NCBI GenBank assembly: GCA_016748015.1
Contig: JAAOMT010000134.1
Span: forward strand, 936,757 to 1,000,756
Direction: 5' to 3'
DNA from: Geosiphon pyriformis uo1
Taxonomy: Eukaryota; Fungi; Glomeromycota
DNA length: 64,000 nucleotides
Below the pieces are notes generated by a model. The model did not search any database. It had not been told where the DNA came from and saw nothing but the letters and a program-made list of their open reading frames with translations. Of the stretch, positions 320-49,937 are shown piece by piece (position 1 is the stretch's first letter; every line of letters begins with the position of its first letter). Made by a program: the position numbers and the translations under genes.

Positions 320-332
320 TTATCCCTTTCTT

Positions 333-1795: not shown

Positions 1796-3322
1796 TGTAT
1801 TTTTTCTTGGATCTAGGATGAGGTAACTTTCTATTTTCTTAGAGAGTTCCTTTTCTAATTGTGTTATTCTTTTCTTTAATGTTTCTGTCTTATTTTTCTC
1901 TATTATCATGTTAACTATTTAACTATGGTTAGCTTTTTTCTAAGCCGATTCAAGGGCTCTGGCAAGTGTAATGGCTTCTGGTAAGGAATTAGGGTGGGCA
2001 AAGCATACTCTTCCTAAAATACTGCTTTTTAATCCTCTAATAAACTGATTTAAAACCCGAGGATCAGTGTAGTATTCTTGTTCAATCACTTTAATCTGAT
2101 GGCGAATTCAATTGAATCGAGCAAGGTATTGGGTGACAGTTTCACCAGTATTTTGCTTGATAGTATTGAATTTATTCTGTAGTTGGATTATGGCATTTGG
2201 GTCACTAAAATACTCCAGGAGTGCATTTTTAAATTCGGTGAAGCTTGTGGGTTTTGTTTTCAGGCTTTGATACCATAAGTTGGCTGTGCCTTTCAGGAAG
2301 AAAAATAATGTTTAAATTGCTCTTTGGTCATTCCAGTTATTTGCCTGGATGGCTTTTTGTGCTTCTCTAAGCCATGTGTGCACGTCCATTTCTTCTTCCT
2401 CTCCTGAGAAATCTGTTAGTCTTGCAATGTATGGTGTGGCTATTTCGTTGCCATTTTCTGCTGGTGGGCTTATTGGTCTAAAAGGAGGTGGGATAATATT
2501 TCCTTGAGCGTTCCTAAAGATGGCTTCTCTTATATCCAATTCTTCTTCTTGATCATGAGTTTCTTGGTTTCTGGACTGGCTGCTTATTCCAGTGACTGGT
2601 CTTGTAATTGTTTTTTTACTGGTCTCTTTTTCGGATTCTGATTCAGATTTTTTTTCACAGTTTTCAAACCCCATTCCAAATTTTGGCTGAAAAAGAGGGT
2701 TTTGAAATAGTGATGAATATCCTCCTGTAATTGGTATGTCTCTCCAGTTATGTTGTTTAATTTTATTAGTATAACTAGAAATTTTTGGCATTTGTGGAGT
2801 TGATGTTGATGATGATACAGCTTCTAATGGAATTTGTATCTTATTTTCTGGTAAAAAATGGTATGATTTATCTTCTGGTGAATAAATATGTTGTTTTTTT
2901 ATTAATTGAGTGACAGTTTTCTTTGGTGTTTGAGCAAGTGTTCCTAGTTTTTGCTGGTTACTTTTCTGATTAGTTTCTAAATTTTCTTTGGTTTTGTTGG
3001 CATGTTCCCTAGTGTTTCCTGTAAATATTGAAAAATTTTCATTGGCGTATTGCTCAATTTCTCAATGGATTTTGACAATAGTTGCAGCTATTACTGCTAC
3101 TTCTTTTGTAGTATATTGTGATAATTCTCTATACAATCCAAGTTTTGTATTGTGTAATTTTTCTTCCTTTCCTATATGATAATTTATTCTGGCATTAATA
3201 TAATAAGTGAGAGCAGATTTTGCTGGACAACACTCTTCTGGTAATCCAAGATCACTTTGATTTTATGTGTAAATAGCATGGCAGAATTCAAGAACAGTAA
3301 AATTAGGGGTTTTTGTCACCAC
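1796..3322 (-). pseudogene. gag with N-terminal extension, element C
   Basis: ATPYIARLTDFSGEEEEMDVHTWLREAQKAIQANNWNDQRAI matches capsid N-termini of A and B; AAAAGTG at 3322. Confidence 0.85.
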
Positions 3323-3402: not shown

Positions 3403-3404
3403 AA

Positions 3405-5862: not shown

Positions 5863-5875
5863 TTATCTCCTCCTT

Positions 5876-14000: not shown

Positions 14001-14760
14001 GGCTTTTTTAATGTCATTAAGCCATATTTGGGTGTCATCTTTTTTGCCAGTGAATTTCTTAAGTTTTGCTATTGGAACATAGGCCATTAGATCCAAGTTT
14101 GGTTGTTGAAGTTGTTGTTGTGGCTGTTGAAATGGCTGTTGTGGTTGTTGTAATAGTATTTGTTGTAATTGGATCAGTTCAATTGGTGGCTAATCAATAA
14201 CAATTATTGGAGGTAAGTTTTGCTGATTAATTAACTCAGAGTTTGGATTGTTTTAATTCAGTGATGTTTAAATATTTGAAGTTCCGATTTCCAGATTTTC
14301 CAAGTTTAAATTTTGCTGAGTTTGTAGGTTTGGGGTTTCAATTTCCAGGTTTTCTGGAATCAGGTTCTGGTAAGTAAATTCTTGATCTTCAGATTCTTTT
14401 TTCTGTTCTCCTTCCAATTCCATTATTTCTCAAGGACTTATAGTTCTGAAATTGGATTGGGGTAGCAGAGATCGAAGTTCTAATGTCATTGGCAATCATG
14501 ACTTGAATCCTTTAAAATACGTGCCATATAATCTTAGAAGATCTTCTTTCTTTTGTTTACTCTGAAATGGGAATCATCCAAATGTTGATGTCATAGTTGA
14601 TATGAATATGCCTGTTGATATAATGTTAATGGCACTTCCAGGTGTATAGTGGTATGATGGATTTGCTGGTAATTCAACTCTGGTTTTCTTCCAAGTGGGT
14701 GGTTGTATTTGTTTTGGTGTTACTGCTGTTTGCAATCTTCTTTTGCCTTTGTCTGTGTAG

Positions 14761-15740: not shown

Positions 15741-16428
15741 TAACCTCCTCCTCAAGATTGAGCTCCATCGAAGTCCAAGTACTGTTTGTTATTTCCAGAT
15801 AATAATCCAAAATTATTAAAGAAATTTGGTTTGAAAATTGTTGAAATTTCAGTTCTGTAAGCTTTCTAATGTATTGAATTTTCAAAGGTTGAAAAATTGG
15901 GTTTTGTAGTACGTTTTCACAGATGTGGAATAGGTCATAAAGTCTAAGAGCAGCTCTGAGCCTGTAGCGACTGTTTGTTGATCCAGCTGTTGTCTTGAAT
16001 TTGTTGTAGAGTTGTTTCTGAATAGCTTCTTTTGTGAGGTTTGCTGTTGTAAGTTCCAGTTTCCATTCATAGAGTGTTTTTCTAATGTGGAAATATCTAT
16101 AGATTGGAGGATATTCAGTGTTTTTCTCATTAAGACACAGTTGAAGTCTTTGTTGAATTGTAGCATTTAGTGGAATACTAATCGAAGTGAGCATTAAATT
16201 TTCTTTTAAAGCAAGCTTTAAAAGTTCTGGTAGGTGAATTCCAGTATAACTTCTTGTGTTCTTTTTATACAGGTGATATTTTTGTGAATTTGGGGCTAAA
16301 TTTGTAACTACTTCTGTTTAGATATAATTAATGTGGTTTCCAGTAACAATAATAGATAATTCAGGTATTGTTTTTAAAGTTAACATTAGTTTTTGGGATA
16401 ATTGTTGAATGTTTTGAGGAATAGTCAT
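15709..16428 (-). pseudogene. ORF3 (orphan 3' ORF) of A1, 240 codons, one internal stop
   Basis: MTIPQNIQQLSQKL...YRYFHIRKTLYEW...RAALRLYDLF...; reads through the PPT into the LTR; conserved in A2. Confidence 0.8.
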
Positions 16429-16549
16429 TATAAGCAATTTGAAATAAAAGAAAATTATTTTTGGTACATGGGTTTTTATGTTATTTTTGTTTTGTTTTTG
16501 TGAGATTGTTTCTAAATTATAAGAAAATAACTATAATAATAAATTTAAA

Positions 16550-17935: not shown

Positions 17936-17984
17936 TGTTTGTTGGCTCTTTTGGTTAGTTAAGTTGAGTGTTGGTTTTTGTTTT

Positions 17985-20900: not shown

Positions 20901-23606
20901 ACAAGTATGATTTTCATATTCTTCTTTAGGTGAAATGCAGGCTCCCATTGATGATAGTTTCTTGTGGCAGTCCTTACATTTAAGGTGAATATAGGGGTGT
21001 TGTTTCCTTGGTTCAGGTTTTGAGTAAGAGATATTCCATCCAGAGGTTTTGGGTTCAGATTGTGGAGTAAAATGTTCTTGTTCTGTTTCATTGGCCTAGT
21101 TGGATGTTGATCCAAGAGCCATGAATGTTTCAATGAGAGGTTTTTCCTCTTCTGGTTCGAATTCAAAAGCTGGGGCTTTTTCAAAGCGTTTGTTAAATGT
21201 ACCACAAGTGGCAGGTACCCAGGCATATTGTTCTTGATAGAAGATTGTTAACTCTTGTGTTTCTCAATTCAGATTAGCATTGGCTTTTTGAAGCCAATCA
21301 TTTCTGACAAAAGCTTGGTACTGGGGTGCATCCATTACAAGAACTTTGACTGGAATGGTGATTCCATCAAGAGTGAATGGAAAATTGTTAATTTCTCCTA
21401 CTGAGGTCTTTTTCATGCCATCGGCAGTGACAATTACTGTTTGAGCTGGTCGGTCAACATTTCTTTTCAACTGTTGCATTAACTGGTAGGTAATAATGCT
21501 TCTGGTGGATCCACTGTCTAGGATCAAGCAAATTGTCTTTCCTTCGACTTCGGCTTTAGTATACATGGCTGTGATTGCTTTTTGTTCATTGGCAGCTGCA
21601 TTGCTAAGCAGAAATGGTGACTCATTTGCTTCGAACTCAAAAGGGAATATATCTGAAAGGTTAGTGTTTTTAGCAATTCTGGCTGGTGGAATTGTGGTGG
21701 GAGTATAGGAAGGATTTTGTTGTTGTTGTGCTGCAGCTCTACCTTCCAAGAGTGCAGTATGGTGAAAATTCTGTTCTTCCAGCATTGTTAAATAACTGGG
21801 TTGAGTGTGGTAGTGGTTGGATCTTGGTTGAGTGGTATTTTAGGGAACCAATTGGTTGTTCAAACTGATTCTATTGTTGTTTACTTGGTATTAGTTTTGT
21901 GGTGTGAATTGATTTTGTGTAAGCAGTCTTCGAGCAGGTACTTGATAATGTTGTGTGAGCAGTTGTTGATATTGCTGTGGGATTGGCTGTGAGGTGGACT
22001 GATAATAGTTATTTTGGTATTGGGGTTTTGGTGGATAGTAAGCTGGTGGTGGCGGTTGATAATAAAATTGCTGTGGTTGAGGGTAACGTTGATTACTCCT
22101 ATTTTGTTGGTCTCATTGTAGCTTTTTGCAATCTCTTTTCCAGTGGCCAGAGATTCTACAGTAATGGCAACTCTGAGGCTGGTTATTGGAAAGTGGTGCA
22201 AAGTTATTTTGATTTCGTCTTTGGGGTGGTTGATATCTTTGGGGTTGCTGTTGTTGTTGATTGGTGAAATAGTTTTCAACCTTCTTTGTGAATTGGTCAA
22301 TTTTTTCTTCAGCTGCTGAGCTGGTTTCTCCAATTGCCAAATTTACAAGTTTTGTGCGATTGGCCTCTTCTATGGCCATTTCGTATCTTTTTGCATACTG
22401 TATGGCAGAGTTTAAATCTTCTGGCACATGTGAGCAAACTTTTTTAATTAGTTTATCTTTTAGACCAGTGATAAATTGATCCAAGATTTGAGCATCAGAA
22501 TAATAATCGTTTGTTTTGAGTTGGCGAATTTGTCTAAGAAGTTTGTTGAATTTTTCAATATAAGTTATAACAGATTCGGAGAGTTCTTGTTTGATATTTC
22601 GAAAACAATTATGAAGGGTGATAGAGATATTATTGTTAGTGAACTGTTCAAGAAAGGCTGCTTTGAAAGCATTCCAATCATTGAATGGAGTGGCCAAGTT
22701 TTCAAACCATTCTCCTGCTGTTCTTTTGAGAAAGTAGGGAATTGTTTTTAACATTCTTTCAGCATTCCATCCATTTGCATCTCCAGCTTTAGTAACTTGG
22801 TCGAGCCATTCTTGGGAACTGGTTTCAATATCTTCTCCATTGAATTCAGGGATTTTTGTGATGTATGTTGTCATTTTGTCTTCTTCCTTTTCACTGTCTA
22901 TTGATTCTTCTTCAGTTATTTCAGAGTTGTTTTCTTCATTTGCTGTTGTCTCAGAGTGTTTACTTTAATTTTCAGCTAGAAAATCAAGGAGATTAGAACT
23001 AGTTTAAAGGAGTTCTTGTTGTCTGATGGAACTTCTGAGTGCTGTAAAATCTTCTGGTCTTGCAAATTGATTCAAGGGTGAATTAGGTGTTTGTGCTTAT
23101 GCAAGTAAAGCTGGAAAAGGTGTGATAGTAAGTGGAAGTTTTGAACTGGTTCCTTGTTCAGGTGTTTGTAAATGGTTGGCAGTTGTTTTTGGTAGTATTG
23201 GAGTATTTGGGGTGGTTCTTGAGTATTGCTTCAATTTGTTTTTGCCTTTGTTGTTTGTTTCTGTTTCCAATTCAAAATCAATAGTGTATTGAGACTGCAC
23301 TGGATATGTTTCTTCACAGTATTTGATAATGTTAAAATTAAGTTCGTGAAAGTAAGTGGCAAGTGTTTTACTGTTAAGGTCTTCAGTTCCCAACTGTGAA
23401 TAGTGTGCTAAATTATTGTAAAAGTTGCTTCTAACTTCTGAGATATTGTAATTTCCAAAAAGATAATTGTTGATGCGGTTTTCAATGTATTGGTATACTG
23501 ATTTCTTGACAACTTCAATTCCATCTGGAATGTTGAATTTTTGCTTGCAGTGGGTGTAAATTGACTGGTAATACTTTAGAGTTGTTGTGTCTGGTGTGGT
23601 CATCAC
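17985..23606 (-). pseudogene. Single-frame gag-pol of A1 (extension, capsid, CCHC, PR, Cys-rich, dUTPase, RT, RNase H)
   Basis: 5622 nt = 1874 codons from GTG at 23606 to TAG; CHYCRISGHWKRDC; LILDSGS; YLDD; LATDASH; ends DCLSRMRQD*. Confidence 0.93.
19830..20225 (-). pseudogene. dUTPase domain in A1 pol
   Basis: DAGYDLRY, SSLASKG, GIINAEYTGD, EKIA, RETQGFGST. Confidence 0.92.
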
Positions 23607-23637
23607 TTTGAAGTTGTTTTTGCTGTGTTGTTTTTGT

Positions 23638-23649
23638 GGGAGAGCACCA
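23638..23649 (-). promoter_or_regulatory. Primer-binding site, A1
   Basis: LTR end + TT + TGGTGCTCTCCC; A2 has TGGTGCTCTCTC at 37552-37563. Confidence 0.75.
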
Positions 23650-23651
23650 AA

Positions 23652-24631
23652 TATTACCAGAGGTTTTTGGTCTCTTTTCTTAAATGTTGTCAATGCTTGT
23701 TTGCTGTGAATTCACGTTTTCTGGATGTGGTTGAACCTCCAATAACTGAATTTATCTTCAAATTATCTCCTATAATTTGAATTGCTGGGCTTATAAGTGG
23801 AATGGCCAATTCTGTGCCAGTTATTTTATGTAGTTATGTTGTAGTAAATGTCAACTCTTTCCCAGGAATTGCTTGTCTGGAAGCTCACTAAAATGTATAG
23901 TTACTTTGCTGTGAAAGTCAAATCTTCTTCAGAAATCTTGTCTGTAGGCTACCCTAATAATTATAATAAGAAAATAAAAAAGAAAATGAAAAGATGTAAA
24001 AGAAATAGAATTCTGTCAAGGGAAACGTTTTCAATCTAGGTCTGGAGTCACTAACAAATTATTGAAATTGGTAGCTAATCAATTTCAAAATGTTAGTTGG
24101 ATTTTGGGGATTTTCTAAGTACAATAATTAAAGAATTTGGTTTTTCAAATTATTTGATATTTATTTTTTTTTGTGTGTGTAGGAATGGTTCTAAGTGATA
24201 AATCTAAAGTAAGATACATTTTCTCGAAAAGAGAAGCTCTTCTTTTATACAACTTGTCATAACACTATTTTATGAACTTAAACTTTGCTATTTTCTACAA
24301 TTTTGCTGAACTAAAGATACATTTCGGCAAACTACAAGTTATTTCTGTAAACTATTAGATATTTCAGTAAACTATCAATTATTTCGGCAAATTTCTATAA
24401 ATTTCAGTGAACTTTTGAATGTTACATAGTTCAGGATATTGCATGATTGATCATCGCAATTAGGTTACATTTGTGTTGTGTACAATTTGGGTTATTAATT
24501 AAATGATAATTTTGGACATTTTTTTGCTAATGTAATAAGTAATAATTTGAACCAATAATATATGCTAATTAATGATAGGAATTATAAGATAGTTTCATGC
24601 TAAATAATATCTCTAATTTCGCCTGGTAACA
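23652..24631 (-). repeat. 5' LTR of A1
   Basis: Pairs with 14761-15740; ends TGGTAACA. Confidence 0.95.
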
Positions 24632-24937
24632 GTAGGTAATAGGGAATTATTGTTGCATATACCTTTCAATGGTTTGATTGATTTCCCTAATGATTGTAAA
24701 ACTGTAGTTTCTTGATAAACTGGTATGTTGAAATAATTCTGTATAGAAGTTTTCTCTTGCAGATTCAATGTTAATTGTTCCTTCTAAGCAGTCTGTGATT
24801 TTATCATTGACATAGAAATTAAAGACTGATTCCACTGGGAAATAATTATTGTTTAATCCTAATTGTTGGCTGTACTGTTGAAACAAGAATTTGGCAAATT
24901 CTAAATGGTTTGTCCCTATGATTTCTGATTCTGCCAC
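24632..24937 (-). pseudogene. 5' end of B1 gag (N-terminal extension)
   Basis: AAAAGTGGCA start, (V)AESEIIGTNHL...; continues at 14760 across the A1 TSD. Confidence 0.8.
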
Positions 24938-24999: not shown

Positions 25000-25821
25000 T
25001 GTTACAGATAATTATTTGGGATCTCAAGTCAAATAAAAAATCCATAACTTGGTGCTGGTTTGGTATTCTGGTGTTGATATCTGAAGGTTTGGTAAATCTA
25101 AAGGTTTGTTGTAGAGTTTTTTGTATAATAGACAGAAATTTACTATGGTTGATTTAAGTTGTTTTCCTCAAGTTGTTTTCCCAATTTCTGTCTTCAGCAT
25201 AGTGGCCAATTTAATCTAGTAGTCGTGCTCTTCTGATAAGCTGTCCATTAATATATATAATTCTACTCTTATTCCTGTGTCTTTTACCAGGCTATTTGTG
25301 ACATCAATAACTCAGCGCTTTAATTCTCTTAATTAATTTAGTACACAACAATAAAATCAAAGAAAAAAAAATAAAAAAAATAAAAAAAATGAAGAAATGA
25401 GCCAATACAATTACAAGTTAGTATTCTGTCAATAGCTGTGATCAAAAGCTATTGTTCTAGTATAGTTAAGTATCAATTGCTATCAACATAAAGTGTTAAT
25501 AGTGGAAAGTGGATTAAGATAACAAATAATTATTTATTGATATTTGTGAATGGAAAGGTTGCTTAGATTAAATTTAAACTGGGAGGTCTGTCTTTTTTAC
25601 TTCTAATGCTATCATTATATATACATAATTTGGGTTCTATGAAATTGCTCACATTCTCGAGTGATGTGCTATAATTTCTCAAGCAATACTTACATTGCTA
25701 AGCAATATGTTATATTTTCTTGACATTGCTCCATATTGCTGAGCAATGTGCTTACATGCTAATTACTACTTTCTTATTGGCCTACTATTTTTCTATATTT
25801 GTTTTCTTTTTATGAATAACA
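25000..25821 (-). repeat. 5' LTR of B1
   Basis: TGTTACAG...ATAACA followed by TSD TTGG. Confidence 0.94.
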
Positions 25822-26189
25822 TTGGCTTTGAATCAAAAGAAAAATTAAAATTAGCTTTTAATATAAAGCCTATTTTAGATAACATCAAACTTTTTTGAAC
25901 TAAAATAGATCTGGTTTGTTGTAAGAGATGTGAATATTTCAGACATTTAGCTTTGAAGTATAATGCATTAGATATTTGTGTCTTGTTTTTTAAGAAAACA
26001 TATAAAAAAATTGTTTTAGAAAAGAATTATTTTCAGCTGGCTAAGTTGTACATTAAAAAAAATGTTTATATTTTCTATTCTGCTGTCTTTGGTGACAGAT
26101 TTTGGGCACAGATGGTTTTATTGACTGTCTTATTTTATAATATTTGTTCTGGTTCTGGCTTTGGATCTTTTATTTCTGACATATTATAT

Positions 26190-27021: not shown

Positions 27022-28678
27022 ATATATAAAAGAAAGTTTTGTAATTATCTAAAATAATTTGTTTATTGGTGCTTGCTTAACTTTTTTGGAATGCTTTTTG
27101 GAGTTTTTAACTAATTAAGTATCAGATATTATCTGTAAATTAAGCATAATAAATCTAATACTCCTAATACTTATTTTTTAATTTTAATTTCTATTTTTTG
27201 TGGTGTTTGTTCCTTCAAATTTAAAATTAGATGTGGATATGATTTTGGATAACACACTTGTGTTATCTATTCTTTCTTTTATAATTATAAATAATATGGT
27301 TTTAGATTTGAATTTGAGTATGTTAAAAGTTTTAATCATTAAGATATATAAGTTAAAATCTAAAATAGTGATACTTAAAGTTTCTGTTAATTCAGTTTTG
27401 GTAAAATTAGATTAGTTGTATACTGACTTAGATTTTCTGATGTTTTTTTTGTTTTAATGAATAATTTGGTTTGAAAATTTGCTATATATAATATTTAAGG
27501 TATTAATGTTTCTGCCAAGCAAAAAGACATTGTTTATTGACATATAGAATTGGAAAATATAGTTTTGATTATCATGAAAATAAAATTGAAATTTAATATT
27601 AAATTATAGATTATAAATAAGTTTAATAAAGTTAAGATTTTTACTTCTGGTTTGAATATAAGTTTTTTATGGTATTAGTATAACTGTAATTATGAACAAT
27701 TCTTTGGCTTAGCATATTTCAAAGATAAATAATATTTTGAATTGTTTAATTTCAATATGTTTTTTGTTTAAAGACAAGTTTTTGGTTATTATTTTGAGTT
27801 TATATGCTAATATGTCTACTAATACACAATTTGATTAAGCTTTTAATATCAACTTTATTATTTTTAAAGCTGTCAATTCTAATTTTTTTGTGGTTCTGAA
27901 CAGTAATTTCAATAAAAATAATTCTAAAAAAAATACAAACTTTAGGAAATACTCGGAAATAAGTCTGATTAATTTACTTAAAGAATACTTTTTGGTAAAA
28001 ATTTTTATTTAGAACAATTTTAAACAAGCCAAAAAAGTTATTAATTATATTTTTGTTAGTAAAAATTTGTTATTGACAATTATAATATATAAAATTAGTA
28101 GTATTTCTGAATTTTTTGTTACAAATTATAAAGCAATAGTGGTTTTAGTTGGCTTAAAAGATTTTTTGAATACATATTTATAAGCAAGCAAACAAAAATT
28201 GTTGAAAGTTTAATGTTAAAAATGTAGATAGTGTCAAATAAACTTGTTTTAAGGAATGTGTTTCAGCTAAATTATTATTAGTAGTAAATAAGTTTGCAAA
28301 TGTAAAAGCTTTTAATAAGTTAGATAATATGTGAAAAAGTTTAAAAGAAGTAATAATAGATTTAGCAAATGCTACTTTTTTTAAACTTTGGCACAGTAAG
28401 TTTAAATGTCTAAAAAATAAACAATTATTAAAATTTCTTGAATTGAAATTATTGATTGCTAGAATTATAAAAAAATTAAATGCAGACAACAAGTCTGAAT
28501 TTGACTTTTTTCTTATAAAATAATTAACAATTAATAATATTATTACTTATTATTACTTATAAAAAAAGTACAAGAAAAAAAAGTAAGAAAAACAAATAAA
28601 AAATAAACCAATAAGAGAATAGTACTTAGCAAATAAGCACATTTTCAGAAAATTATAACACATTGTTTAGCAATGTGC

Positions 28679-29658
28679 TGTTACCGGAGGTTTTTGGTCT
28701 CTTTTCTGTAATGTTATTGATACTTATTTGCTGTGAATTCACGTTTTCTGGATGTGGTTGAACCTTCAGTAACTGAATTTATCTTCAAATTATCTTCTAT
28801 AATTTGAACTGCTGGGCTTATAAGTAGAATAGCCAATTCCTTGTCAGTTATTTTATGTAGTTACATTGTAGTAAACGTCAACTCTTTCCCAGGAATTGCT
28901 CGTCTGGAAGCTCACTAAAATGTATAGTTACTTTGCTGTGAAAGTCAACTCTTCTACAGGAATCTTGTCTGTTGGCTACCCTAATGATTGTAATAAGAAA
29001 ATAAAAGAAAAATAAAAGAAATGTAAAAAAAATAGGATCTTATCAAGGGAAACGTTTTCTATTCAGACCTGGAGTCACTAACAGTTTACTGAAATTGGTA
29101 GCTAATCAATTTCGAAATGTTAGTTGAGTTTTGGGGATTTTCCAAGTACAATAATTTAGAGAATTTGGTTTTTCGAATTATTTGATATTTATTTCTTTTT
29201 GTGTGTATAAAAATGGTTTGTAAAAGATAAATCTAAAGTAAGATACATTTTTTTGAAGAGAGAAGCTTTTCTTTTATACAACTTGTCATAACACTATTCT
29301 ATGAACTTGAACTTTGCTATTTTCTAAAATTTTGCTGAACTAAAGATACATTTCAGCAAATTACAAGTTATTTCAGTGAACTATTAGATATTTCGGTGAA
29401 CTATCAATTATTTCGGCGAATTTCTACAAATTTCAGCGAACTTCTGAATGTTACATAGTTTGGGGTATTGCATGATTGATCATCGCAATTAGGTTACATT
29501 TGTGTTGTGTACAATTTGGGTTATTAATTAAATGATAATTTCAGACATTTTTGCTAATGTAATAAGTGATCATTTGAAATGATAATATATGCTAATTAAT
29601 GATAGGAATTATAAGATAATTTCATGCTAAATAATATTTCTAATTTTGTCTGATAACA
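28679..29658 (-). repeat. 3' LTR of A2
   Basis: TGTTACCG...TGATAACA; PPT GAGGAGGAGG adjacent on - strand. Confidence 0.95.
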
Positions 29659-30347
29659 TAACCTCCTCCTCAAGACTGAGCTCCGTCGAAGTCCAAGTAC
29701 TGTCTGTTATTTCCAGATAATAATCCAAAATTATTGAAGAAATTTGGTTTGAAAATTGTTGAAATTTCAGTTCTGTGAGCTTTCCAATGTATTGAATCTT
29801 CAAAGATTAAAAAATTGGGTTTTGTAGTATGTTTTCACAGGTGTGAAATAGGTCATAAAGTCTAAGGGCAGCTCTAAGCCTGTAGCAACTGTTTGTTAAT
29901 CCAGTTGTTGTTTTGAATTTGTTGTGGAGTTGTTTTTGAATAGCCTCTTTTGTGAGGTTTGCTGTTGTAAGTTCCAGTTTCCATTCGTAGAGTGTTTTTC
30001 CTATGTGAAAATATCTATAGATTGGAGGATATTCAGTGTTTTCCTCATTGAGACACAGTTGAAGTTTTTGTTGAATTGTAGCATTTGGTGGAATACTAAT
30101 CAGAATGGGCATTAGGTTTTCTCTTAAAACAAGCTTTAAAAGTTCTGGTAGGTGAATTCTAGTATAACTTCTTGTGTTCTTTTTATACAGGTGATATTTT
30201 TGTGAATTTGGGGCTAAATTTGTAACTACTTCTGTTTGGGTATAATTAATGTAGTTTCCAGTAACAGTAATGGATAATTTGGGTATTTGTTTTTAAAGCT
30301 AACATTAGTTTTTGGGATAATTGTTGAATGTTTTAAGGAATAGTCAT
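29627..30347 (-). pseudogene. ORF3 of A2
   Basis: Homologue of 15709-16428 with a 1-nt frameshift and stops. Confidence 0.8.
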
Positions 30348-30465
30348 TATAAGCAATTTGAAATAAAAGAAAATTATTTTTTGGTGTATGGGTTTTTATG
30401 TTATTTTTTGTTTTGTTTTTGTGAGATTGTTTCTAAATTATAAGAAAATAACTAGTAAAATTAAA

Positions 30466-31851
30466 TTAAGTGTTCAGGTTAAAAGGTTGTTCAATGACAA
30501 CTATTGGTTCTAAGTTTTGGAGAATGTCTTCGGGACTGACCAAAGGGGAATGTGTACTGATTTGTGAAATTAATGGTTCAGGATTGTTTCTGAAATGATA
30601 GTGTTTCAAACGATCTCCATGTGCAACTTTTGCTAGGATTTTGTTATCAAGTCTTAGCTTGTATGATCCATTGCCTAGGACTTCATGGATAAAGAATGGT
30701 CCATCCTATTTATTTTCAAATTTTCCACTCCATTGTTTTTTAGCTTTAGTTCTGTGTAAGAGAACTTTGTTTCCAATTTTGAATTTATTGGTAACTGAAG
30801 GCAATTTGTCATCATGCTATTCTTTTTGTTGAGCTTGGGAGTGTTCAATATGGGTGACTGTTATTCATTGTTTTCTTTCCAATGTGCTAAGCAGAGTGTA
30901 GGCTCTTTGCTGAAGCATTTTTTGGAAATTGTTTTTATTGATCAGTTGTGCTGGGTATGTTTCCACTGTGAAACTAATTGGTAACGTTGCCGTCCTTCCA
31001 TAAGTTAAATCAAATGGTGTGTGTTTTGTGGTATCTTGTTTTAATGTCCTATATGCTAGTAACACTGATGGGATAAAGAGATCCCATTCTTGCTCAAAAT
31101 TAGTTGAGACTTTGGCTAATGACTCACACAATGTTCTGTTAAACCGTTCCACAAGTCCATTTGTTTGTGGATGGTAGGGCAAAGACAGAGGTCTTTTGAC
31201 ATTGAATCGTTCACAAATTTCTTGTATCAGGTTGTTCACAAAGTGTGTTCCCTGATCGGATAAAAGTTCAATTGGATATCCATGTCTACAAATAATGTCT
31301 TCGTAGATAAAATTTGCTACTGATTTTGCATCTGCTCGTTGAATGGCTCTGGCTTCAGGCCATTTAGTAAAATAGTCTACAGCTACTGCAATATAACAGT
31401 TTCCTTGAGTGGTAATAGATAGTGGTCCGACTAAATCGATACCAACTCTGTCAAAAGGCTGTCCAACTTTGATTGGATTTAAAGGTTCTGTAGGGTGAGT
31501 TCCTTCTCTTCTTTGACAAATATCACAAGATTCAACATATTTGTGAATGTCTTTTCTCATTTGAGGCCAAAAGTAGTATTCTATTGTTCTTTGGGTGGTG
31601 CTATCTTTTCCGAAGTGTGCTGATGAAAGATCTGAGTGCATATTGTATAAAATGGTCTCTTTTTCCTGTTCTTGTATTAATCTGAGTGGTTTGGTTGGGT
31701 TTTTGAAATTTTGATGATAGATAATATTGTTGTGTAGAAAATATTGTTTGGCTTGTTATTGTAACTAATGTTTTTTGTCTGGGGACCAATCTGTTGGGAT
31801 TGTTAATGTCTCCAAATATTGTTTGAGATTATTGTAGTTTTTGGGGTTCAT
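30466..31851 (-). pseudogene. Stand-alone integrase ORF of A2
   Basis: ATG at 31851 (MNPKNYNNLKQYL); MHSDLSSAHF..CDICQ; GIDLVGP; SDQGTHF; NGLVERFN; 462-codon span. Confidence 0.94.
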
Positions 31852-31899
31852 TGTTTGTTGTTTTGATGCTGTTAATTCAAATGGGTGTTGGTTTTGTTT

Positions 31900-34800
31900 C
31901 TAATCTTGCCTCATCCTTGAGAGACAATCAACGTTGGTGTGAAGTTTTCCTGGTTTGTGGTGTACGATGTATTGGTAATTAGCTAAAAATCCTGTCCATC
32001 AGGTTTGTTTTGCGTTCAGCTGGGTGTTTTTGTTTTGAAGCCATTTAAGTCCAATATTATCAGTGATAATATCAAATTCTTTGGGTCTGAGGTAAAGGTT
32101 GAAGTGATGTAGGGCCCAGATTACTGCTACAGTTTCTAATTCTGTTGTGGGGTAGTTCTTTTCAGCTGGCTTTAATGTTCTACTAGTATAAGCAATTACT
32201 CGCTCATTTCCATTGTCATCTAACTGTGATAGGATAGCACCAAAGGCAGTATAAGAAGCGTCAGTTGCTAACCAGAATCGGTTGCTGAAGTCTGAGTAGA
32301 TGAGGATTGGGGCTGTTGTGAGTTTTTCCTTGAGTATCTCAAAGGCATTTTGGTGTTCTTTTGTCCATTTGTATTCGACATTTTTCGTAGTGAGCTGGTT
32401 GAGGGTTTTTGCAATTTCTGAGAATTCTTTGATGAATTTTTGGTAATAGGATGCTAATCCAATAAATCCTCTTAATTCTGTGGTATTTCGTGGAGTCTTG
32501 AAGTTTTTGACAGTACTGATTTTTCCAGGGTCTGGTTTAATTCCATCTTTGCTAACAATGTGACCAAGAAAAGCTAAACTTGTCTTTCCAAAGTAGCATT
32601 TTTCAATGTTCAGTTTCAATCCTGCTTTCCGTAATCGTTGAAAAACTTCTCACAGGTGAATTAAATGTAGCTCAAAAGATGGTGAATAAACATCAGTGTC
32701 ATCAAGATAAACTACTACTGATTTCCAAAGGAGGCCTTTGTAAACAACATCCATGAGTCTTTGGAATGTTGCTGGTGCATTGCATAATCCGAAAGGCATT
32801 ACATTGAACTCGTAATTTTCTTTTTGAGTGGTGAATGCTGTTTTGGGGCAGTCTTTGAGATCCATAGCAACTTGCCAGTATTCACTCTCTAAATTTAATA
32901 TTGAAAAGTATTTGGACTTTTCAAGGGCATCCAACATGTCATCAATTTGGAGAAGAGGGTAGGCATCCCCAATGGTGACACTGTTGAGTTGTCAGTAATC
33001 AACACAAAAGCATATCTTTCCATTTTTTTTTTAACTAGAACCACAGGTGAGGCCCATGGGCTCATTGATGGTTGAATAAGCCTATTGTTAAGCATCCATT
33101 GTACTTCTTCTCGAATAAATTGGTGACTTTCTGGAGCAACTCGGTAGGCTTGTTGTCACCTGGGTTTGGCATCTCTTGTATAGATTTGGTGTTGAACCAA
33201 ATCAGTTCTTCCTAAGTCATTGTTGTTTTTGGCGAAGATATCAGCAAATTCTGCAATTAGTTCTTTGAGCTGGGTCTGTTGTTGTAGTTCAAGTTGTCCC
33301 ATGTTGATTCGAGATAGTTTTTTCATGACAACATGGTAGTTTTCAGAGCTAGGATTTGGGTTGATTTTCAGTAGTGAATGTCCAATAATTTCAGAGAAAT
33401 CGGAGACTGTTTGGGGTAATTTTTGTTGAAATATATTATTGTGAATAACTCCAATTTCTAAATTATTTAATAAAATTATGGGGTAATTATTGGGGTTGTA
33501 AAAAGTAACTCGGACTTTCTTTGTTCCTTCTGGAATATAAATGTTTGGGATCAAAATATTATGTTTCAAGCAGACTTGTTCATTGAACTCAAAAATTTGT
33601 TGTGTGGTTGTTGGCTTTGTGCAAGTGTAAATTTCTGGATGTTCTCCAAAGGGTGAGATGGTAATCGGTTGTGGAAGTCTGAGAATCTGGTGGGATTCGT
33701 TCTGTGTGTTAAGAGCTATATTAACTGGAACTGTGAATTGTCCAGTTGAACCAAAACCTTGGGTTTCTCTATCGCTTTTTCCTAATTGTTCTCTTTGATT
33801 GACTAGTTGCAAACCCGAAATGTTGATTAAGGGTAGGTAAATAGCTTGGGCAATTTTTTCAGCATGTTCAATCTTGAATGGTTTGTCAGTTTCATTTTAA
33901 AGCATTACTGTTATGTCTCCAGTATATCTAGCATCGATTATTCCTCCTCTGACATTGATTCCTTTGCTTGCCAGAGAGGACTGAGAGACGATTTGAACCA
34001 TTGCTCCTGGTGGGATTTCGAGTGCAATTTTGAGGTTGATTTTTGTGAGAGATTTGGGTTTGAGAACAAGAGTATCTTTGCCTGGATATCTTAGGTCATA
34101 TCCAGCATCAATTTCGTGTGCTTTTTCAGGTTTTATTCCTTGTCCATTGTTGTTGAAATATTTAAGTTGTAAGGCAGGCTAATTTTTGATAAGGTAGATG
34201 GGTGTTGTTTCAATTTCTTCTGTTTCTTCAGGTTCTCCAAATTCAATTTCATTCTCATCATTTTCGCTGGGCAAGGGGATACTAAGAGCATAGCATTCGG
34301 AACACCATTGTTCATTGCAAGGCATAATGCATTCTTCACATAGCCTAATGTTCATTTGCTCTAATCATTGAATTTGAGCTTCTTGGGTCGAGTAGGTGTG
34401 ACTTGCAATTTGGTGATAGACTTTTACTTCATCTTCGTAATCGAATCCAGCTAATTCCATAGTGTATTCAATGTATTCTGCTTCCTTCATTTGATGAACA
34501 TCTTCTTTGGTAGCTTCATTAATTAATGCCATTGCTAAGTCGAAAATCATCTCGGCATCATGAGGGTAGTGATAAAGTTTGTTGAAAGCACTGTTGTATG
34601 CTGCATTAAAGGGTGTTCCTCTTTTTACTTTTTCTGAAATTGATAAGGCATATTGGCAGGTCTGATCGCAGACGCCTTTTCTCATTGCTACATTAATTCA
34701 ATTGCATTCTTCTGGTAGCATATCTTCACAAGTCAAACAAGCAGTGTTGTCCCATTTTCTGCTTCTTTTTATTAGATGGCCCCATTACTCTCTGTGGCAA

Positions 34801-37520
34801 GCCTTGCAGTAATAACAAGTGTGATTCTCATATTCTTCTTCAGGTGAAATGCAGGCTCCCATTGATGATAGTTTCTTGTGGCAGTCCTTACATTTAAGGG
34901 GAATATAGGGGCGTTGTTTTCTTGGTTCAGATTTTGAGTAAAGTATATTCCATCCAGAGGTTTCAGGTTTAATGTGTATGGTAAAATGTTCTTGTTTTGT
35001 TTCATCAGCCCAGTTGGACGTTGATCCAAGAGCCATGAATGTTTCGATTATTGGTTTTTCTTCTTCTGGTTCAAATTCAAAAGCCGGGGCTTTTTCAGAG
35101 TGTTTGTTGAATGTACCACAAATGGCAGGTACCCGGGCGTGTTGTCCTTGGTAGGAGATTGTTAACTCTTGTGTTTCACAGTTCAGATTAGCATTGGCTT
35201 TTTGAAGCCAATCATTTCCGACAAGAGCTTGGTACTGGGGTGCATCCATTACAAGAACTTTGACTGGAATGGTGATTCCATCAAAAGTGAATGGAAAATT
35301 GTCAATTTCTCCTACTGGTGTCTTTTTCATGCCATCAGCAGTAACAATTACTGTTTGAGCCAGTCGGTCGATATTTCTTTTCAACTGTTGCATTAACTGG
35401 TAGGTAATAATGCTTCCAGCAGATCCACTGTCTAGGATCAAGCGAATTGGCTTTCCTTTTACTTCAGCTTCTGTGTACATTGTAGTGATGACTTTTTGCT
35501 TATTAGCCGCTGCATTGCTAAGCAAGAATGGTGATTCATTTGCTTCAAATTCAAAAGGAAAGATATCAGAAAAATTGGCGTTTTTAGCAATTTGGGCTGG
35601 TGAAATAGTAGTGTGATTATGAGAAGGGTTTTGTTGTTGTTGTGCTGCAGCTCTACCTTCCGAAAGTGCAGTATGGTGAAAATTCTGTTCTTCTGGCATT
35701 GTTAAATAACTGGGTTGAGTGTGGTAGTGGTTGGGTCTTGGTTGAGTGGAATTTTGGAGAACCAATTGGTTGTTTGGACTGATTCTATTGTTGTTTACTT
35801 GGTATTGGTTTTGTGGTGTGAATTGATTTTGTGTAATCAGTCTTCGAGTAGGTACTTGATAATGTTGTGTGGGTGGTTGTTGGTATTGCTGTTGGATTGG
35901 TTGTAGGGCAGGCTGATAATAGTTATTTTGGTATTGGGATCTTGGTGGATAGTAAGCTGGTGGTGATGGTTGATAATAAGATTGCTGTGGTGGAGAGTAA
36001 CATTGATTACCCCTGTTTTGTTGGTCTCGCTGTAGCTTTCTGCAATCTCTTTTCCAGTGGCCAGAGATTCCACAGTAATGGCAATTCTGGGGCTGGTTAT
36101 TTGAAAGTGGTGCAAAGTTATTTTGATTTTGTCTTTGGGGTGGTTGATATCTTTGAGGTTGTTGTTGTTGTTGGTTGGTAAAATAGTTTTCGACCTTCTT
36201 TGTGAGTTGGTCAATTTTTTTCTCAGCTGCTGAGCTGGTTTCTCCAATTGCCAAATTTACAAGTTTTGTACGATTAGCCTCTTCCATGGCCATTTCATAT
36301 CTTTTCACATGCTGGATGGCAGAGTTTAAATCTTCTGGCGTGTGTGGGCGAACCTTTTTAATTAGTTTATCTTTTAGACCAGCAATAAATTGATCCAAGA
36401 TTTGAGCATCAGAATAATAATTGTTTGTTTCGAGTTGGCGAATCCGTCTGAGAAGTTTGTTGAATTTCCCAATATAAGTCATAACGGATTCGAAAAGTTC
36501 TTGTTTGATATTTCGAAAACGATTGCAAAGAGTGATAGAGGTATTATTGTCGATGAACTGTTCAAGGAAGACTGCTTTGAAAGCATTTCAATCATTGAAT
36601 GGGGCGGCAAGGTTTTCAAACCATTCTTCTGCTGTGCCTTTGAGAAAGTAGGGAATTGTTCTTAACATTCTGGCAGTGTTCCATCCATTTGCATCTCCAG
36701 CTTTAGTAACTTGGTCGAGCCATTTTTGGGGACTGGTCTCAATATTTTCTCCATTGAATTCAGGGATTTTTGCAATGTATGTTGTCATTTTGTTTTCTTC
36801 ATTTTCACTGTCTATTGATTCTTCTTCAGTTATTTCAAAGTTGTTTTCTTCGTTTGCTGCTGTCTCAGAGTGTTCACTTTGATTTTCAGCTAGAAAATCA
36901 AGGAGATTGGAACTAGTTTGAAGGGGTTCTTGTTGTCTGGTGGGACTTCTGAGTGATGTAAAATCTTCTGGTCTTGCAAATCAATTCAAGAGTGAATTAG
37001 GTGTTTGTGCTTGTACAAGTGAGACTAAAAAAGGTGTGATAGTAAGTGGAAGTTTTGAACTGGTTCCTTGTTCAGGTGTTTGTAAATGTTTAGCAGTTGT
37101 TTTCGGTAGTGTTGGAGTATTTGGGGTGGTTCTTGAATATTGCTTTAATTTGTTTTTGCCTTTGTTGCTTGTTTCTGTTTCCAATTCAAAATCAATAGTG
37201 TATTGAGACTGCACTGGATATGTTTCTTCACAGTATTTAATAATGTTATAATTAAGTTCATGAAAGTAAGTGGCAAGTGTTTTACTATTAAGGTCTTTAG
37301 TTCCCAACTGTGAATAGTGTGCTAAATTATTGTAAAGGTTGCTTCTAACTTCTGAGATATTGTAATTTCCAAAAAGATAATTGTTGATGCGGTTTTCAAT
37401 GTATTAGTATACTGATTTCTTGACAATTTCAATTCCGTCTGGAATGTTGAATCTTTGCTTGCAGTGGGTGTAAATTAATTGGTAATACTCTAGAGTTGTT
37501 GTATCTGGTGTGGTCGCCAC
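31900..37520 (-). pseudogene. gag-pol of A2
   Basis: 565-aa open stretch joins capsid, CCHC and protease in frame; dUTPase, RT (YLDD), RNase H; one 1-nt deletion in a poly-A run at ~33025. Confidence 0.94.
33741..34140 (-). pseudogene. dUTPase domain in A2 pol
   Basis: AHEIDAGYDLRY, SQSSLASKG, GGIIDARYTGD, EKIAQAI, RETQGFGSTG. Confidence 0.94.
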
Positions 37521-37565
37521 TTTGAAGTTGTTTTTGCTGTGTTGTTTCTGTGAGAGAGCACCAAA

Positions 37566-38306
37566 TGTTACCGGAGGTTTTTGGTCTCTTTTCTGTAATG
37601 TTGTTGATACTTATTTGCTGTGAATTCACGTTTTCTGGATGTGGTTGAACCTCCAGTAACTGAATTTATCTTCAAATTATCTCCTATAATTTGAACTGCT
37701 GGGCTTATAAGTGGAATGGCCAATTCCTTGCCAGTTACTTTATGTAGTTACGTTGTAGTAAACGTCAACTCTTTCCCAGGAATTGCTTGTCTGGAAGCTC
37801 ACTAAAATGTATAGTTACTTTGCTGTGAAAGTCAANNNNNNNNNNNNNNNNNNNNNNNNNNNNNNNNNNNNNNNNNNNNNNNNNNNNNNNNNNNNNNNNN
37901 NNNNNNNNNNNNNNNNNNNNNNNNNNNNNNNNNNNNNNNNNNNNNNNNNNCATCTTGAACTTTGCTATTTTCTAAAATTTTGCTGAACTAAAGATACATT
38001 TCGGCAAATTACAAGTTATTTTGGCGAACTATTAGATATTTCGGTGAACTATCAATTATTTCAGCGAATTTCTACAAATTTCGGCGAACTTCTGAATGTT
38101 ACATAGTTCGGGGTATTGCATGATTGATCATCGCAATTAGGTTACATTTGTGTTGTGTACAATTTGGGTTATTAATTAAATGATAATTTCGGACATTTTT
38201 GCTAATGTAATAAGTGATCATTTAAAATGATAATATATGCTAATTAATGATAGAAATTATAAGATAATTTCATGTTAAATAATATTTCTAATTTTGTCTG
38301 GTAACA
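37566..38306 (-). repeat. 5' LTR of A2 (contains N gap 37836-37950)
   Basis: TGTTACCG...TGGTAACA; pairs with 28679-29658. Confidence 0.93.
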
Positions 38307-41300
38307 GTGCATATTGTTAGTAAATTATAACATACTGTTTAACAATAAACATATTGTCAGAAAAAATAGGACACATTGTTTAAAAAAATATGAGATCTTG
38401 TATAACAAAAATTATATATATATAGTAAAAGTATTAAAAACAAAAAAAACAGAATCAATACAGACAAAATTAGTAAAACTTATTAATTATCCAATACCCC
38501 TCTTTTCAAAAAATAATTTTCTACAACTTAATGTAAAATTAACTCACATATTAATAAAATATTAATTAATATTTGAAATTCATGTTACTATTACTTAATT
38601 AAGAAATATTAATTAATTCTATACTATCAATACTCAATATTAATAGAATTCAATACTTAATTATACTGGACCAATAATTTTTAATTATGGCTATTAACAA
38701 AATACTAATTTTTTATTTTATTTTTTTTATTTTATTTTATTTTTTTTATTTTGTTTTCTTTGTTGTTTACTAATTAATTAAAAAAATTAAGCACTAAATA
38801 ATTAACATTAAGAATAGCCTGGTAAAAAATCCAGAAACAAAAATAGAAAACTTAAAAATAGTTTATTAGAAGAACATAACTATTAGAATAAACTGGCTAT
38901 CATGCTAAAGAAAAAAATTTATGAAAGAAAACCATTAATTTAATTTTTGTTTATTATACAAAAAACTCAACCAAAATCTTCAGACTCTAAAATTTTCAGA
39001 AACTACTATTATCAACAGTTATTAAGTACTAAGTTATAGATTTGTTATTTTTTTTAATATTTCAAATAATTACTTATAACAATATTAAAGTTTTCAAAGT
39101 TGTATCTATAATTTGGAATAATACAAATTCAGCAAATACTATTAAATAATTGTTATTGGTCAGAAAAAAATATAAAATATTAAAGTATTATAAATTAAAA
39201 GTTGTTAAGAATACAATTATCAAAAAAACAATTAAAAAGTAAATAGAAAACTTTAGTTTTAACAAAGAAAGCATAATTAGAAGTGTTCTAAATCAGTCTT
39301 TTTATAAGGTAGTTTTGGATTATTTGGTGATTGGAAAGAAATTAATTCTGGAACCAGAAAAAATAAAACTTAAAATTGATAAAATTATAGTAGATTAAAT
39401 AAGAGAACACAAAGTGTTTTCAGTATTGCTTATTATTTAGTCTAAACAATACACATCATTGAATTATGTAAAAAAAGATACTTTTTTTAAGGTTATAAGC
39501 AAAATTAATATACATAAGCTAGTTATAATAATTGATAGCTTGTCTAATAACAAAGTAGCTAATTTATTAAACATATTAAATAAACTTTAAAAGCATTGTA
39601 ATAATAAAATATTAAACTGCTTGTTAAGTTTATTTAATTTTACCTGGTGATTAGTAAAATTTTAACATCTTAAAAAAAAGCATGAATTTTTATAATTCCC
39701 AAACCATATAATTGGGAAGGCATCTTAACAAACACATAGTCTATTGTATTTATTGAAACAGCTAAGAAAAATTATCTAAGATTCTGTCAAACCACATCTT
39801 ATTTATTTGTACTAGGCATAATGTTTTTTGTAATAATAACTTCTTAGTTTTAAAAGGTATTTTAACTTAATTTTTTGTGTTTGTAGTTAAATTAATAGTA
39901 AAAAATATTTTGGAAAAGAGTTGAAAAGTTTGGCTGATTTTGTAAGACATATATAAAATCTATGATCTTATTAGATAATAGCACTTAAAAGCTAATTTAA
40001 AATAAATAAAAATATATAATAGGTTCATTAAGTTTTTTGAGAATATATATTTAAATAAAATCAACAATATAATAATTAATTTTGGTCTTTTAAATAAGTA
40101 TAAAGTGCTAAATAGACTGAATTAGAGTAAAGTTTTCTCACCACTCTTGTGAAAAAATTTTTATAACCCTTTGCTATGCAAAGTTAAAAAGCAAAAACAT
40201 TTATGTAGATACAGAATTAATACAAATTTTATAGCAAAAACAGGCAAAATAAAGGTAAGTAAAGACAAATCTTTATTTTTTGTAATAGATACATTCATAA
40301 ATAATATAATTTAGATAAAAAATGATTAGATTTCAACACAGTATATTTTGAATATTGTTAGTAAATTCTTTAAGATTAATAACATTTCTATTAACAATGA
40401 CAAAACTGTAATAATCTTTATTAATTAAAAGATCATGAATGCTTTTTTGTACATTAGTGATTGGCCAATTTTTATAGTTAAATAAAGCAAATCTTACAGA
40501 TATTTGGATATCTTTTTGTCAACAAAGAGCTTGTTTAAATCCAGTTTTGTCAAAACATATTTAGATATTAAGTTTTTTTTTAACTTAGTTTTTAAAAAGA
40601 CATTGTTTAATAAACAATTTTTTTATTTGGTTTTAGTGATCTTACAACTTATTATTAACTATCAAATACAGTTTAGTTTTGTATCTAAGAGTATATATTA
40701 AAAATAAAATATTATGTTGAAAAAAATTTAAAGTTTAAGGCTAATCTGCCAAGAGATTTTTTTAATAAAACTTTGCATTACTTTTTCTTTTATAAACTAA
40801 AAACATTTAAACAAATACAAGTGAAAGACAAAATTACTTTTATAATTGGGTTTTTTAATGTGTTTAAAATTTTTAGCCAATTGTTTGACCATCATTTTTT
40901 AAATTTGCAAGTTCTGAAATAGGCTTTAATAAATCCTTTGCAATACTTTATTAGACTGAAAGTTAGTCTTGTAAATAATTTTTTGGCAAGTATTGTTAAA
41001 ATTTTGTTGGATAACAAGATTTTCTTAGCCAACAATTTGTCCAGTGCATTTTGCAATATGGGTCACTTTTTTATGTTTAAAATTTTGGATAACTTTTTGT
41101 ATTATAGAGTGGTTTTTTTTTTGAAATGCTCTGATATTGTTTTTGATAATAGATTATTAGATAAACATAATTTAATTGTAAGTTAAAAGACTTTTTGTTA
41201 TTGGAAAAAATTAAGTTCTAAGGATTCAGTATCTTTGTAATTTGAGAAAGCTTTAATTTATATGAATAATCATCTAATTAAAATTGGTAAAATTGCTTTT

Positions 41301-44496: not shown

Positions 44497-46888
<2,392 letters not shown>

Positions 46889-49784: not shown

Positions 49785-49937
49785 ATTGTCAAGAAATTAT
49801 GACGAAGGTAAAAGATATGATGCCAGCAGTTCACCAATATGAGATAATCCACTAATCTAGTTTAGTGGGCTCTGTATGTGTCAAATTCACGACCTAAATT
49901 AGGCCAACATGTGCGTCNNNNNNNNNNNNNNNNNNNN

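Follow-up and report, generated by a model that had tools for sequence, protein, structure and literature searches.

The window analysed here is a 64,000-nt stretch of contig JAAOMT010000134.1 from the symbiotic glomeromycotinan fungus Geosiphon pyriformis. It is AT-rich eukaryotic DNA with nested, decayed long terminal repeat (LTR) retrotransposons, all of which lie on the minus strand. Two of these, A1 and A2, are copies of one family (A), and the elements B1 and C represent two further families (B and C). In family A, a 732-nt stretch ahead of the capsid ATG is, by comparison of the copies and families, a conserved N-terminal part of a Ty3/gypsy Gag-Pol frame, and it opens with a GTG. We consider it moderately probable that a long polyprotein is initiated at this GUG and that leaky scanning carries other ribosomes on to the capsid AUG. 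An earlier note on this DNA had proposed the same arrangement, a GUG start and two nested forms of Gag/Gag-Pol, and the comparative sequence evidence supports it.

The Gag extension and its GTG codon

The earlier note had placed the GTG at 37520 of the minus strand, followed by 244 codons down to 36789 and by the capsid ATG at 36788; coordinates and strand are right. The extensions of A1 and A2 align without insertions or deletions, and 46 of the 732 positions differ, 42 of them by transitions. It had also been stated that the two copies share no ATG in this stretch and that their private ATGs mostly sit opposite a CpG. Both statements hold: A1 has three ATGs and A2 two, counting every frame, none is common to the two copies, and four of the five face CG in the other copy. 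In-frame stop codons are equally private. Three TAA codons occur in A1, one TAA and one TGA in A2, and each stands opposite CAA in the other copy. A ciliate-type genetic code, suggested by the fact that the stops of A1 are all TAA, was rejected: A2 also has a TGA, every stop is restricted to one copy, and the host is a fungus.

When ATGs are counted against shuffled sequence, their absence is beyond chance. Mononucleotide shuffles contain about 9 ATGs on average and dinucleotide shuffles of A2 contain 8.5, and a sequence free of ATG was obtained in 0 of 2000 and 0 of 1000 shuffles, respectively. Codon shuffles of A2 lead to an expectation of 6.6 ATGs and a probability of 0.0002 for none. Other trinucleotides made of A, T, and G are common to A1 and A2 in the same stretch (AGT 12, TGA 13, TAG 5, GAT 3, and GTA 3, against 0 for ATG).

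The motif AAAGTGG stands at the N-terminus of the encoded domain in A2 (GTG-GCG), B1 (GTG-GCA), and C (GTG-GTG). As the earlier note had reported, it follows the LTR at a short distance, which amounts to 46, 63, and 83 nt past the LTR ends of A2 (37520), B1 (24937), and C (3322). In all three families it lies 9-11 codons ahead of the first conserved residues (L-E-Y/F), and the surrounding leaders cannot be aligned. GTG is the sole near-cognate codon that A, B, and C have in common at a fixed distance from the domain. An in-frame stop is found 35 (A), 15 (B1), and 9 (C) codons upstream, with no ATG between the stop and the domain; A2 additionally carries a private in-frame TAA 30 codons upstream of the GTG.

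Many more copies can be consulted through the public gene models of G. pyriformis that read through this site or begin at it, 139 of which carry the family A anchor. The 129 family A models that read through have V at the site in 116 cases, M in 7, L in 3, I in 2, and T in 1; a further six open with M there, and another four start at codon 2. Pooled, the site is V in 116 of 135 models (86%), M in 13, and another residue in 6, and an alignment-based recount gave V 118, M 5, and I 2 of 125. Family C models have V in six of seven cases and Met in one, and the sole other family B model (P0077) has V (K-V-A-E), which matches B1 of the window. The GTG is thus conserved across copies of A, B, and C, and the earlier note's proposal survives this check. 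The ATG at codon 2 of A1 was rejected as the true start. It is a decay product of GCG, and codon 2 reads A (79), V (40), or T (10) in 129 of 129 family A models.

The same gene models are a source of misleading starts. Many of them begin at a peptide, MELAIPLISPA..., that is read inside the LTR (37735-37566 of the minus strand and equivalent positions), and a family C model, P0170, begins with the same LTR-derived peptide. Its ATG occurs in decayed copies only and overlaps the TATAAG box. The models that start there reach Gag via predicted introns that differ between models and measure about 35 nt where they could be reconstructed. We also considered this LTR frame as a first exon or an upstream open reading frame and rejected it, as its ATG is not ancestral, overlaps TATAAG, and lies in a different frame. 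Gene models that start in the LTR are likely annotation artefacts. At least 590 G. pyriformis gene models contain the N-terminal domain of the extension, and many of those that were read owe their start ATG to CpG decay or rely on ad hoc introns about 35 nt long.

The extension also shows protein-level constraint, a second check that the earlier note's reading survives. The first 100 or so residues after the GTG are homologous among families A, B, and C at 22-26% identity, with BLASTP E-values of 5e-6 (A-B), 5e-7 (A-C), and 3e-8 (B-C). The frame of B1 was split by the insertion of A1 and stays in register across it (...FPITY / TDKGK...) as far as the capsid Met of B1 itself at 14087. From a 17-row alignment, AlphaFold2 modelled the first 122 residues with helices at residues 7-24, 31-50, 55-69, and 79-100 (mean predicted local distance difference test, pLDDT, 79.9; predicted template modelling score, pTM, 0.73), and a four-helix domain is thereby predicted with confidence. 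Between A1 and A2 the ratio of nonsynonymous to synonymous substitution rates (dN/dS) is 0.36 for this domain, 0.50 for the whole extension, 0.64 for the linker, and 0.27 for capsid and nucleocapsid; these values are a weak test of selection, since they mix selection before insertion with neutral decay after it, and the value for the extension comes from only 40 changes.

The remainder of the extension is a linker rich in Thr, Glu, Ser, Leu, Asn, and Pro with an acidic tail at its end, and it is probably disordered. A signal-anchor was sought in the extension and no hydrophobic segment was found (maximum Kyte-Doolittle mean over 19 residues, 0.82 in A1 and 0.93 in A2). Searches of Pfam with the extension returned no family, and a search of the ESM Atlas for its domain gave no usable match. 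Foldseek comparison of the domain model with PDB and BFVD gave no match at E <= 0.001, and a VIA-align wide search reached a best Z of 6.6 with generic helical bundles; no clear structural relative emerged from these comparisons, which also bear on a likeness to solved retroviral matrix (MA) domains. At the sequence level, phmmer returned 91 matches to the domain and a profile search 590 at E <= 0.01. All five phmmer matches that were looked up, and 120 of 120 among the profile matches listed, are from G. pyriformis, and one gene model of this fungus is 100% identical to A1 over 99% of the domain query. Metagenomes were scanned for DNA of relatives with the domain profile and with a capsid profile, and no locus could be confirmed. 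Our guess is that the extension helps in particle assembly or targeting, in an accessory or matrix-like role.

The divergence of A1 and A2 is uneven. Over 22116-23606 and 36030-37520, the synonymous rate (dS) is 0.096 in the extension and 0.25 in capsid and nucleocapsid, and the two copies are 96% identical in the 5' part and 89% identical overall. They may be recombinants of different subfamilies.

The ATG-free tract, the proposed mechanism, and its rivals

The lack of ATG extends well beyond the extension. A full-length alignment of A1 and A2 has 127 common sense-strand ATGs in 9.87 kb, and the largest gap between them runs from 24322 to the capsid ATG at 22874; the runner-up measures 594 nt. 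The 5' LTR of A2 is incomplete, and five LTR copies were aligned to locate the last conserved ATG. In this alignment, ATGs at 24260 and 24219 are present in all three copies that have sequence there, and none is conserved further downstream. The ATG-free tract of family A is therefore about 1,345 nt long, and is composed of the last 565 nt or so of the LTR, a 47-nt leader, and the 732 nt of the extension (GTG included). In A1, positions 24321-22875 (1,447 nt) contain 5 ATGs, and dinucleotide shuffles contain 16.5 +/- 3.1, with 0 of 1000 that low. On a Poisson model, a gap of 1,448 nt would turn up among 128 gaps with a probability of 1e-6, and one of 1,345 nt with a probability of about 4e-6.

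The tract ends exactly at the capsid ATG. Across 187 gene models, Met occurs in at most 6 copies at every column of the extension, until the capsid Met is reached (129 of about 150). The capsid Met is aligned in families A and B, and it is Met in five of five other copies of family C, where the copy in the window has ATA. The density of ATG per kb in the extension, compared with the sequence downstream, is 2.7-4.1 vs 19 in A, 9.2 vs 19.9 in B1, and 9.1 vs 14.2 in C. Family A, with no ATG common to its two copies in 732 nt, has the AUG-free tract that leaky scanning calls for, and family C has it only partly.

We propose the following course of events. A scanning ribosome on the family A RNA would encounter no AUG ahead of the capsid. 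A fraction of ribosomes would initiate at the GUG at 37520 (AAA-GUG-G), aided by the A at -3 and the G at +4, and would make the long polyprotein, with GUG presumably decoded by the initiator tRNA. Those that pass this weak start would scan the AUG-free tract and begin at the capsid AUG at 36788, so that one RNA would yield a long and a short polyprotein, nested in the same frame. Two nested forms are proposed because the tract ends at the capsid ATG and because the capsid Met is conserved in three families. The long form would add a four-helix domain of about 100 residues and an acidic linker of about 140 residues before the capsid. Most ribosomes would probably leak past the GUG, which would make the long form the minor one; that both products are used, and where transcription starts, are likewise suppositions of the scheme. 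The ancestral element seems to have had one Gag-Pol frame, because A1 has Gag and reverse transcriptase in one frame and A2 has reverse transcriptase and integrase in one frame, and both forms would therefore be whole polyproteins.

A wider claim can be built on this scheme, and here our judgement is evenly balanced. A whole group of fungal Ty3/gypsy elements may have stopped using AUG to open the polyprotein. A GUG in perfect context would open a long form that carries a new, previously undescribed N-terminal Gag domain of four helices; more than 1 kb of leader and coding sequence would have been cleared of AUG, leaving the other ribosomes to initiate at the capsid, and one unspliced RNA would give two polyproteins in a ratio fixed by the start codon.

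Several points weigh against GUG initiation followed by leaky scanning. The complete desert is seen in family A alone: family C retains one in-frame Met in the extension in five of six copies, and in the extensions of the single B1 and C copies there are 9 and 8 ATGs, respectively, a density roughly half of that downstream. In family A, the TATAAG box is conserved in five of five LTR copies in the window, and the desert reaches to about 420 nt ahead of it; the assumed position of the transcription start leaves this reach unexplained. GUG is usually a weak start in eukaryotes, and a hairpin downstream of the GTG was sought in four copies, with none above shuffles (z -0.7 to +1.4). Finally, there are the 13 of 135 family A models with Met at the site. 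We read this minority as G-to-A decay, enriched by gene finders that favour such copies, and some M is expected because decay here makes ATG from GTG and ACG; an ATG-bearing subfamily could also account for it.

The alternative that survives best, unlikely as we think it, is that GUG is the sole functional start. The capsid Met would then be kept for another reason, such as a protease site between linker and capsid, and a short product from its AUG would be incidental. Conservation of the N-terminal domain in three families means that the long form is of importance, an in-frame Met within the extension is tolerated by family C, and hydrophobic residues are common at retroviral protease sites. 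A sole GUG start would not, however, need ATGs to be purged in all three frames, yet none is common to the copies in 732 nt. Moreover, a weak start would still send most ribosomes to the capsid AUG; this codon is in frame, and the frame from capsid to integrase that follows it is otherwise complete.

A start codon made by splicing is quite unlikely in our estimation. In this case AAAG/TGG would be a 3' splice site at which an LTR exon ending in A is joined to TG, which creates A/TG-GCG. The spliced RNA, lacking the primer-binding site, would encode the long form, and the unspliced RNA would encode the short form from the capsid AUG. Two of the four introns read in an adjacent proteasome-ATPase gene end in AAG, so that AAAG/TGG could serve as a 3' splice site. 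Host donors read GTAATT, GTAAGT, and GTATCA, and donor-like sites of the type A/GTAA occur in the LTRs (AAA/GTAACT twice, together with TTA/GTGAGC, in A; ATA/GTAAAT in both LTRs of B; ACA/GTAATA in C). The ATG desert would fit as well, and its deep reach into the LTR permits a transcription start further upstream. Against this, the good A/GTA donors of family A are all upstream of the conserved TATAAG, with only A/GTTACT downstream of it, and one AGTAA per LTR tail is about what chance provides (we estimate some 0.6 per 250 nt). Directly ahead of AAAG, 20-25 nt are rich in A and C and include one or two T, whereas the four host introns end T-rich, and TTAAC, present in three of the four, is absent before AAAG in A and B, with only CTAAA in C. 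After splicing, the invariant AAA would no longer be start context, and its conservation in three families would be left unexplained. The introns of gene models near the site also vary from copy to copy and serve to reach ATGs made by decay. On balance, the sequence arguments weigh against a spliced LTR exon that supplies the ATG.

Other routes to the extension, namely a different near-cognate codon, an internal ribosome entry site, or an upstream AUG reading frame combined with programmed frameshifting, are very improbable. There is precedent in yeast, where the conserved AUG-less extension of YPL034W depends on a +1 frameshift, according to the accessible part of the report (PMC12719033). 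Candidate codons also exist: family A has an in-frame ATT after the upstream TGA, and the B1 leader has ATA and ATT. In family A, however, the 610 nt or so ahead of the GTG are free of ATG in all frames, which leaves no AUG reading frame to shift from, and the start codon of MELAIPL... reads ACA, ATG, AAG, AAG, and ATA in five LTRs, so that its ATG is not ancestral. Only the GTG keeps its place relative to the domain in A, B, and C, and the ATT of family A has T at -3 and C at +4. That nothing unusual happens at all, the active elements starting Gag with an ATG at the site or at the next codon and the window holding decayed copies, is scarcely credible: A1 has an ATG at codon 2, and Met stands at the site in 13 of 135 A models and one of seven C models, but the direction of decay is from C to T and from G to A (of the 46 differences between A1 and A2, 42 are transitions, and most private ATGs face CG), which makes ATG from GTG or ACG and not the reverse. 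V is found in 86% of A models and in three families, and 129 of 129 models have Ala, Val, or Thr as their second codon.

The elements and their surroundings

The A elements are Ty3/gypsy (Metaviridae) elements, with paired LTRs, a target-site duplication (CTAC in A1, GCAC in A2), and an integrase placed after the reverse transcriptase. Their LTRs are about 980 bp long each and are of the TG...CA type, with the ends TGTTACC...GGTAACA. On the minus strand, Pfam domains follow in the order Retrotrans_gag (4.6e-12), Ty3_capsid (9e-8), zf-CCHC, Asp_protease_2 (5.7e-11), RT_RNaseH_2 (8.1e-35), Integrase_H2C2 (8.7e-19), and rve (7.2e-14). The TTTGGTGCT motif of the sequence like a primer-binding site in A2 recurs, in decayed form, after the LTRs of B1 and C, and tRNA genes were sought within the 64-kb window and none was found. 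Between protease and reverse transcriptase, at 33159-33896 of the minus strand, A2 has a weak dUTPase match (PF00692, E 1.5e-4) that lies at the cut-off; several G. pyriformis gene models of this element carry the same family as a precomputed annotation. This suggests a Ty3/gypsy lineage that bears a dUTPase.

Positions of the Gag features and of the elements that carry them
Feature	Position	Strand	Remarks
Proposed GUG start, AAAGTGG	37517..37523	-	GTG at 37520-37518; A at -3, G at +4
Gag extension of A2	36789..37520	-	GTG at 37520-37518; 244 codons (732 nt), in frame with the capsid ATG
N-terminal domain of the long Gag	37209..37520	-	About 104 codons; predicted four-helix; conserved in families A, B, and C
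Linker	36789..37208	-	About 140 codons, in frame, free of Met
Capsid ATG of A2 (MTTYIAK...)	36786..36788	-	Context ACAAAATGA; first sense-strand ATG after mid-LTR
Remaining A2 polyprotein, capsid to integrase	30868..36785	-	Capsid, zinc knuckle, aspartic protease, weak dUTPase-like match, RT/RNase H, and integrase; interrupted in this copy by stops and at least one frame change
Gag extension of A1	22875..23606	-	GTG at 23606 (AAAGTGATG); private ATG at codon 2; capsid ATG at 22874
Extension of B1 (family B), first part	24632..24937	-	GTG at 24937; first 102 codons, up to the A1 insertion
Extension of B1, second part	14085..14756	-	Same frame, resumed past the A1 insertion; capsid ATG of B1 at 14087-14085
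Extension of family C	2441..3322	-	GTG at 3322; 293 codons; capsid-start codon at 2443-2441, ATA here
Copy A1	14761-24633	-	LTRs at 14761-15740 and 23654-24633
Copy A2	28679-38308	-	LTRs at 28679-29658 and 37566-38306
5' LTR of A2	37566..38306	-	Interrupted by an N run at 37836-37950; TATAAG at 37709-37704; terminates in GGTAACA
Sequence like a primer-binding site, TGGTGCTCTCTCAC	37550..37563	-	2 nt past the LTR end of A2

B1 has LTRs near 5152-5864 and 25152-25864. A1 is nested in its Gag extension, with the CTAC duplication, and B1 is the older element. Element C occupies 1-4265, and its 3' LTR runs off the window; its LTR copies are only 3,965 bp apart, and it is internally deleted, with Gag and part of the integrase retained. 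A further LTR at 59525-60508 of the minus strand is 77% identical to the family A LTR and is not followed by internal sequence; it is either a solo LTR or the stump of an older relative.

Outside these elements, 27182-27930 and 54623-55370 are very AT-rich (12-23% GC) and have degenerate repeats in common at 71-75% identity. Such AT-rich stretches between the elements are probably heavily decayed older repeats. A direct repeat, 100% identical, is formed by 48007-48306 and 49938-50237 at a spacing of 1,931 bp, beside a gap of 20 N at 49918-49937; around it, entire open reading frames are doubled (47958-48419 equals 49862-50350, and others). Either the assembly is at fault here, or a segment of a host gene was duplicated in tandem very recently. 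On the plus strand, an Rpt-like AAA-ATPase of the host's 26S proteasome is encoded at 45280-46180 by a gene whose introns are short (about 70-110 nt), and an open frame at 63341-63571 with sequence like an RNA-recognition motif (FYIGGLSKDVTEKDLYERFTSFGEVARVDIV) is probably an exon of a host gene.

Significance and comparison with known systems

If the reading of GUG initiation with leaky scanning is true, these elements would be the first LTR retrotransposons known to work in this way, and they would parallel, independently, rice tungro bacilliform virus (RTBV) and the glyco-Gag of murine leukaemia virus. A search of literature for a non-AUG Gag start in LTR retrotransposons found no report, in coverage that lacked most subscription journals and supplements. 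LTR retrotransposons would then be able to set the ratio of Gag-Pol isoforms by a start codon, in addition to frameshifting, readthrough, and splicing, and selection would be able to hold more than 1 kb free of AUG for the sake of that ratio. Near-cognate initiation and scanning over long distances could be studied in family A as a clean natural system, within a fungal lineage that diverged early. For annotation, gene finders that require ATG mis-annotate these elements, and Gag searches that assume an ATG start will truncate or overlook such domains.

In murine leukaemia virus, an upstream near-cognate codon in frame with Gag gives an extended form, glyco-Gag, beside the form started at AUG. 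The extension of glyco-Gag is short (<100 residues) and is a signal-anchor that directs the protein to the membrane. Family A would resemble it in the upstream near-cognate start in frame and in the pair of an extended and an AUG-started Gag. It differs in that its extension has 244 residues, with a soluble-looking four-helix domain and no hydrophobic stretch, and is conserved across families with 22-26% identity in the N-terminal domain. The analogy that the earlier note drew with glyco-Gag thus stands for the way of initiation and fails for the signal-anchor function, as there is no hydrophobic segment. In the yeast element Ty1, a short Gag is made from an internally initiated transcript and restricts transposition. 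The truncated Gag p22/p18 of Ty1, as the accessible part of PMC5408680 has it, is a case of two nested Gag forms that differ at the N-terminus; in family A, unlike Ty1, both forms are proposed to come from one RNA through the choice of start codon.

RTBV is also a reverse-transcribing, Ty3/gypsy-related system, and, as is proposed for family A, its non-AUG first start is followed by an AUG-free tract that reaches to the next start. According to PMC5902531, about 10% of ribosomes use its AUU start, and the others scan AUG-free coding sequence for about 900 nt. The downstream starts of RTBV open separate open reading frames and its ribosomes arrive by shunting (same source), whereas the products of family A would be nested in the same frame; in addition, the codon here is GUG and the host is a fungus.

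PEG10, a domesticated Ty3/gypsy gag-pol gene, is translated from an upstream CUG and from an AUG in the same frame and has no in-frame AUG upstream, according to the accessible text of PMC2800197. With the scheme proposed for family A it has in common a Ty3/gypsy-type Gag with non-AUG and AUG starts in frame. PEG10 differs in that its codon is CUG, that 34 residues are added, and that it is a host gene, and a long AUG-free tract is not described in that part of the source. A fungal precedent is provided by cpc-1, whose conserved near-cognate codons are flanked by A at -3 and G at +4 and whose N-terminal extension is under purifying selection; near-cognate initiation has been shown for it in Neurospora extracts and cells (PMC5487733, accessible part). 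Like family A, cpc-1 has a conserved near-cognate codon in the same context in a fungal mRNA. It is, however, as that text describes it, a host transcription-factor gene with regulatory upstream open reading frames, whereas family A is a retrotransposon without upstream reading frames that begin with AUG.

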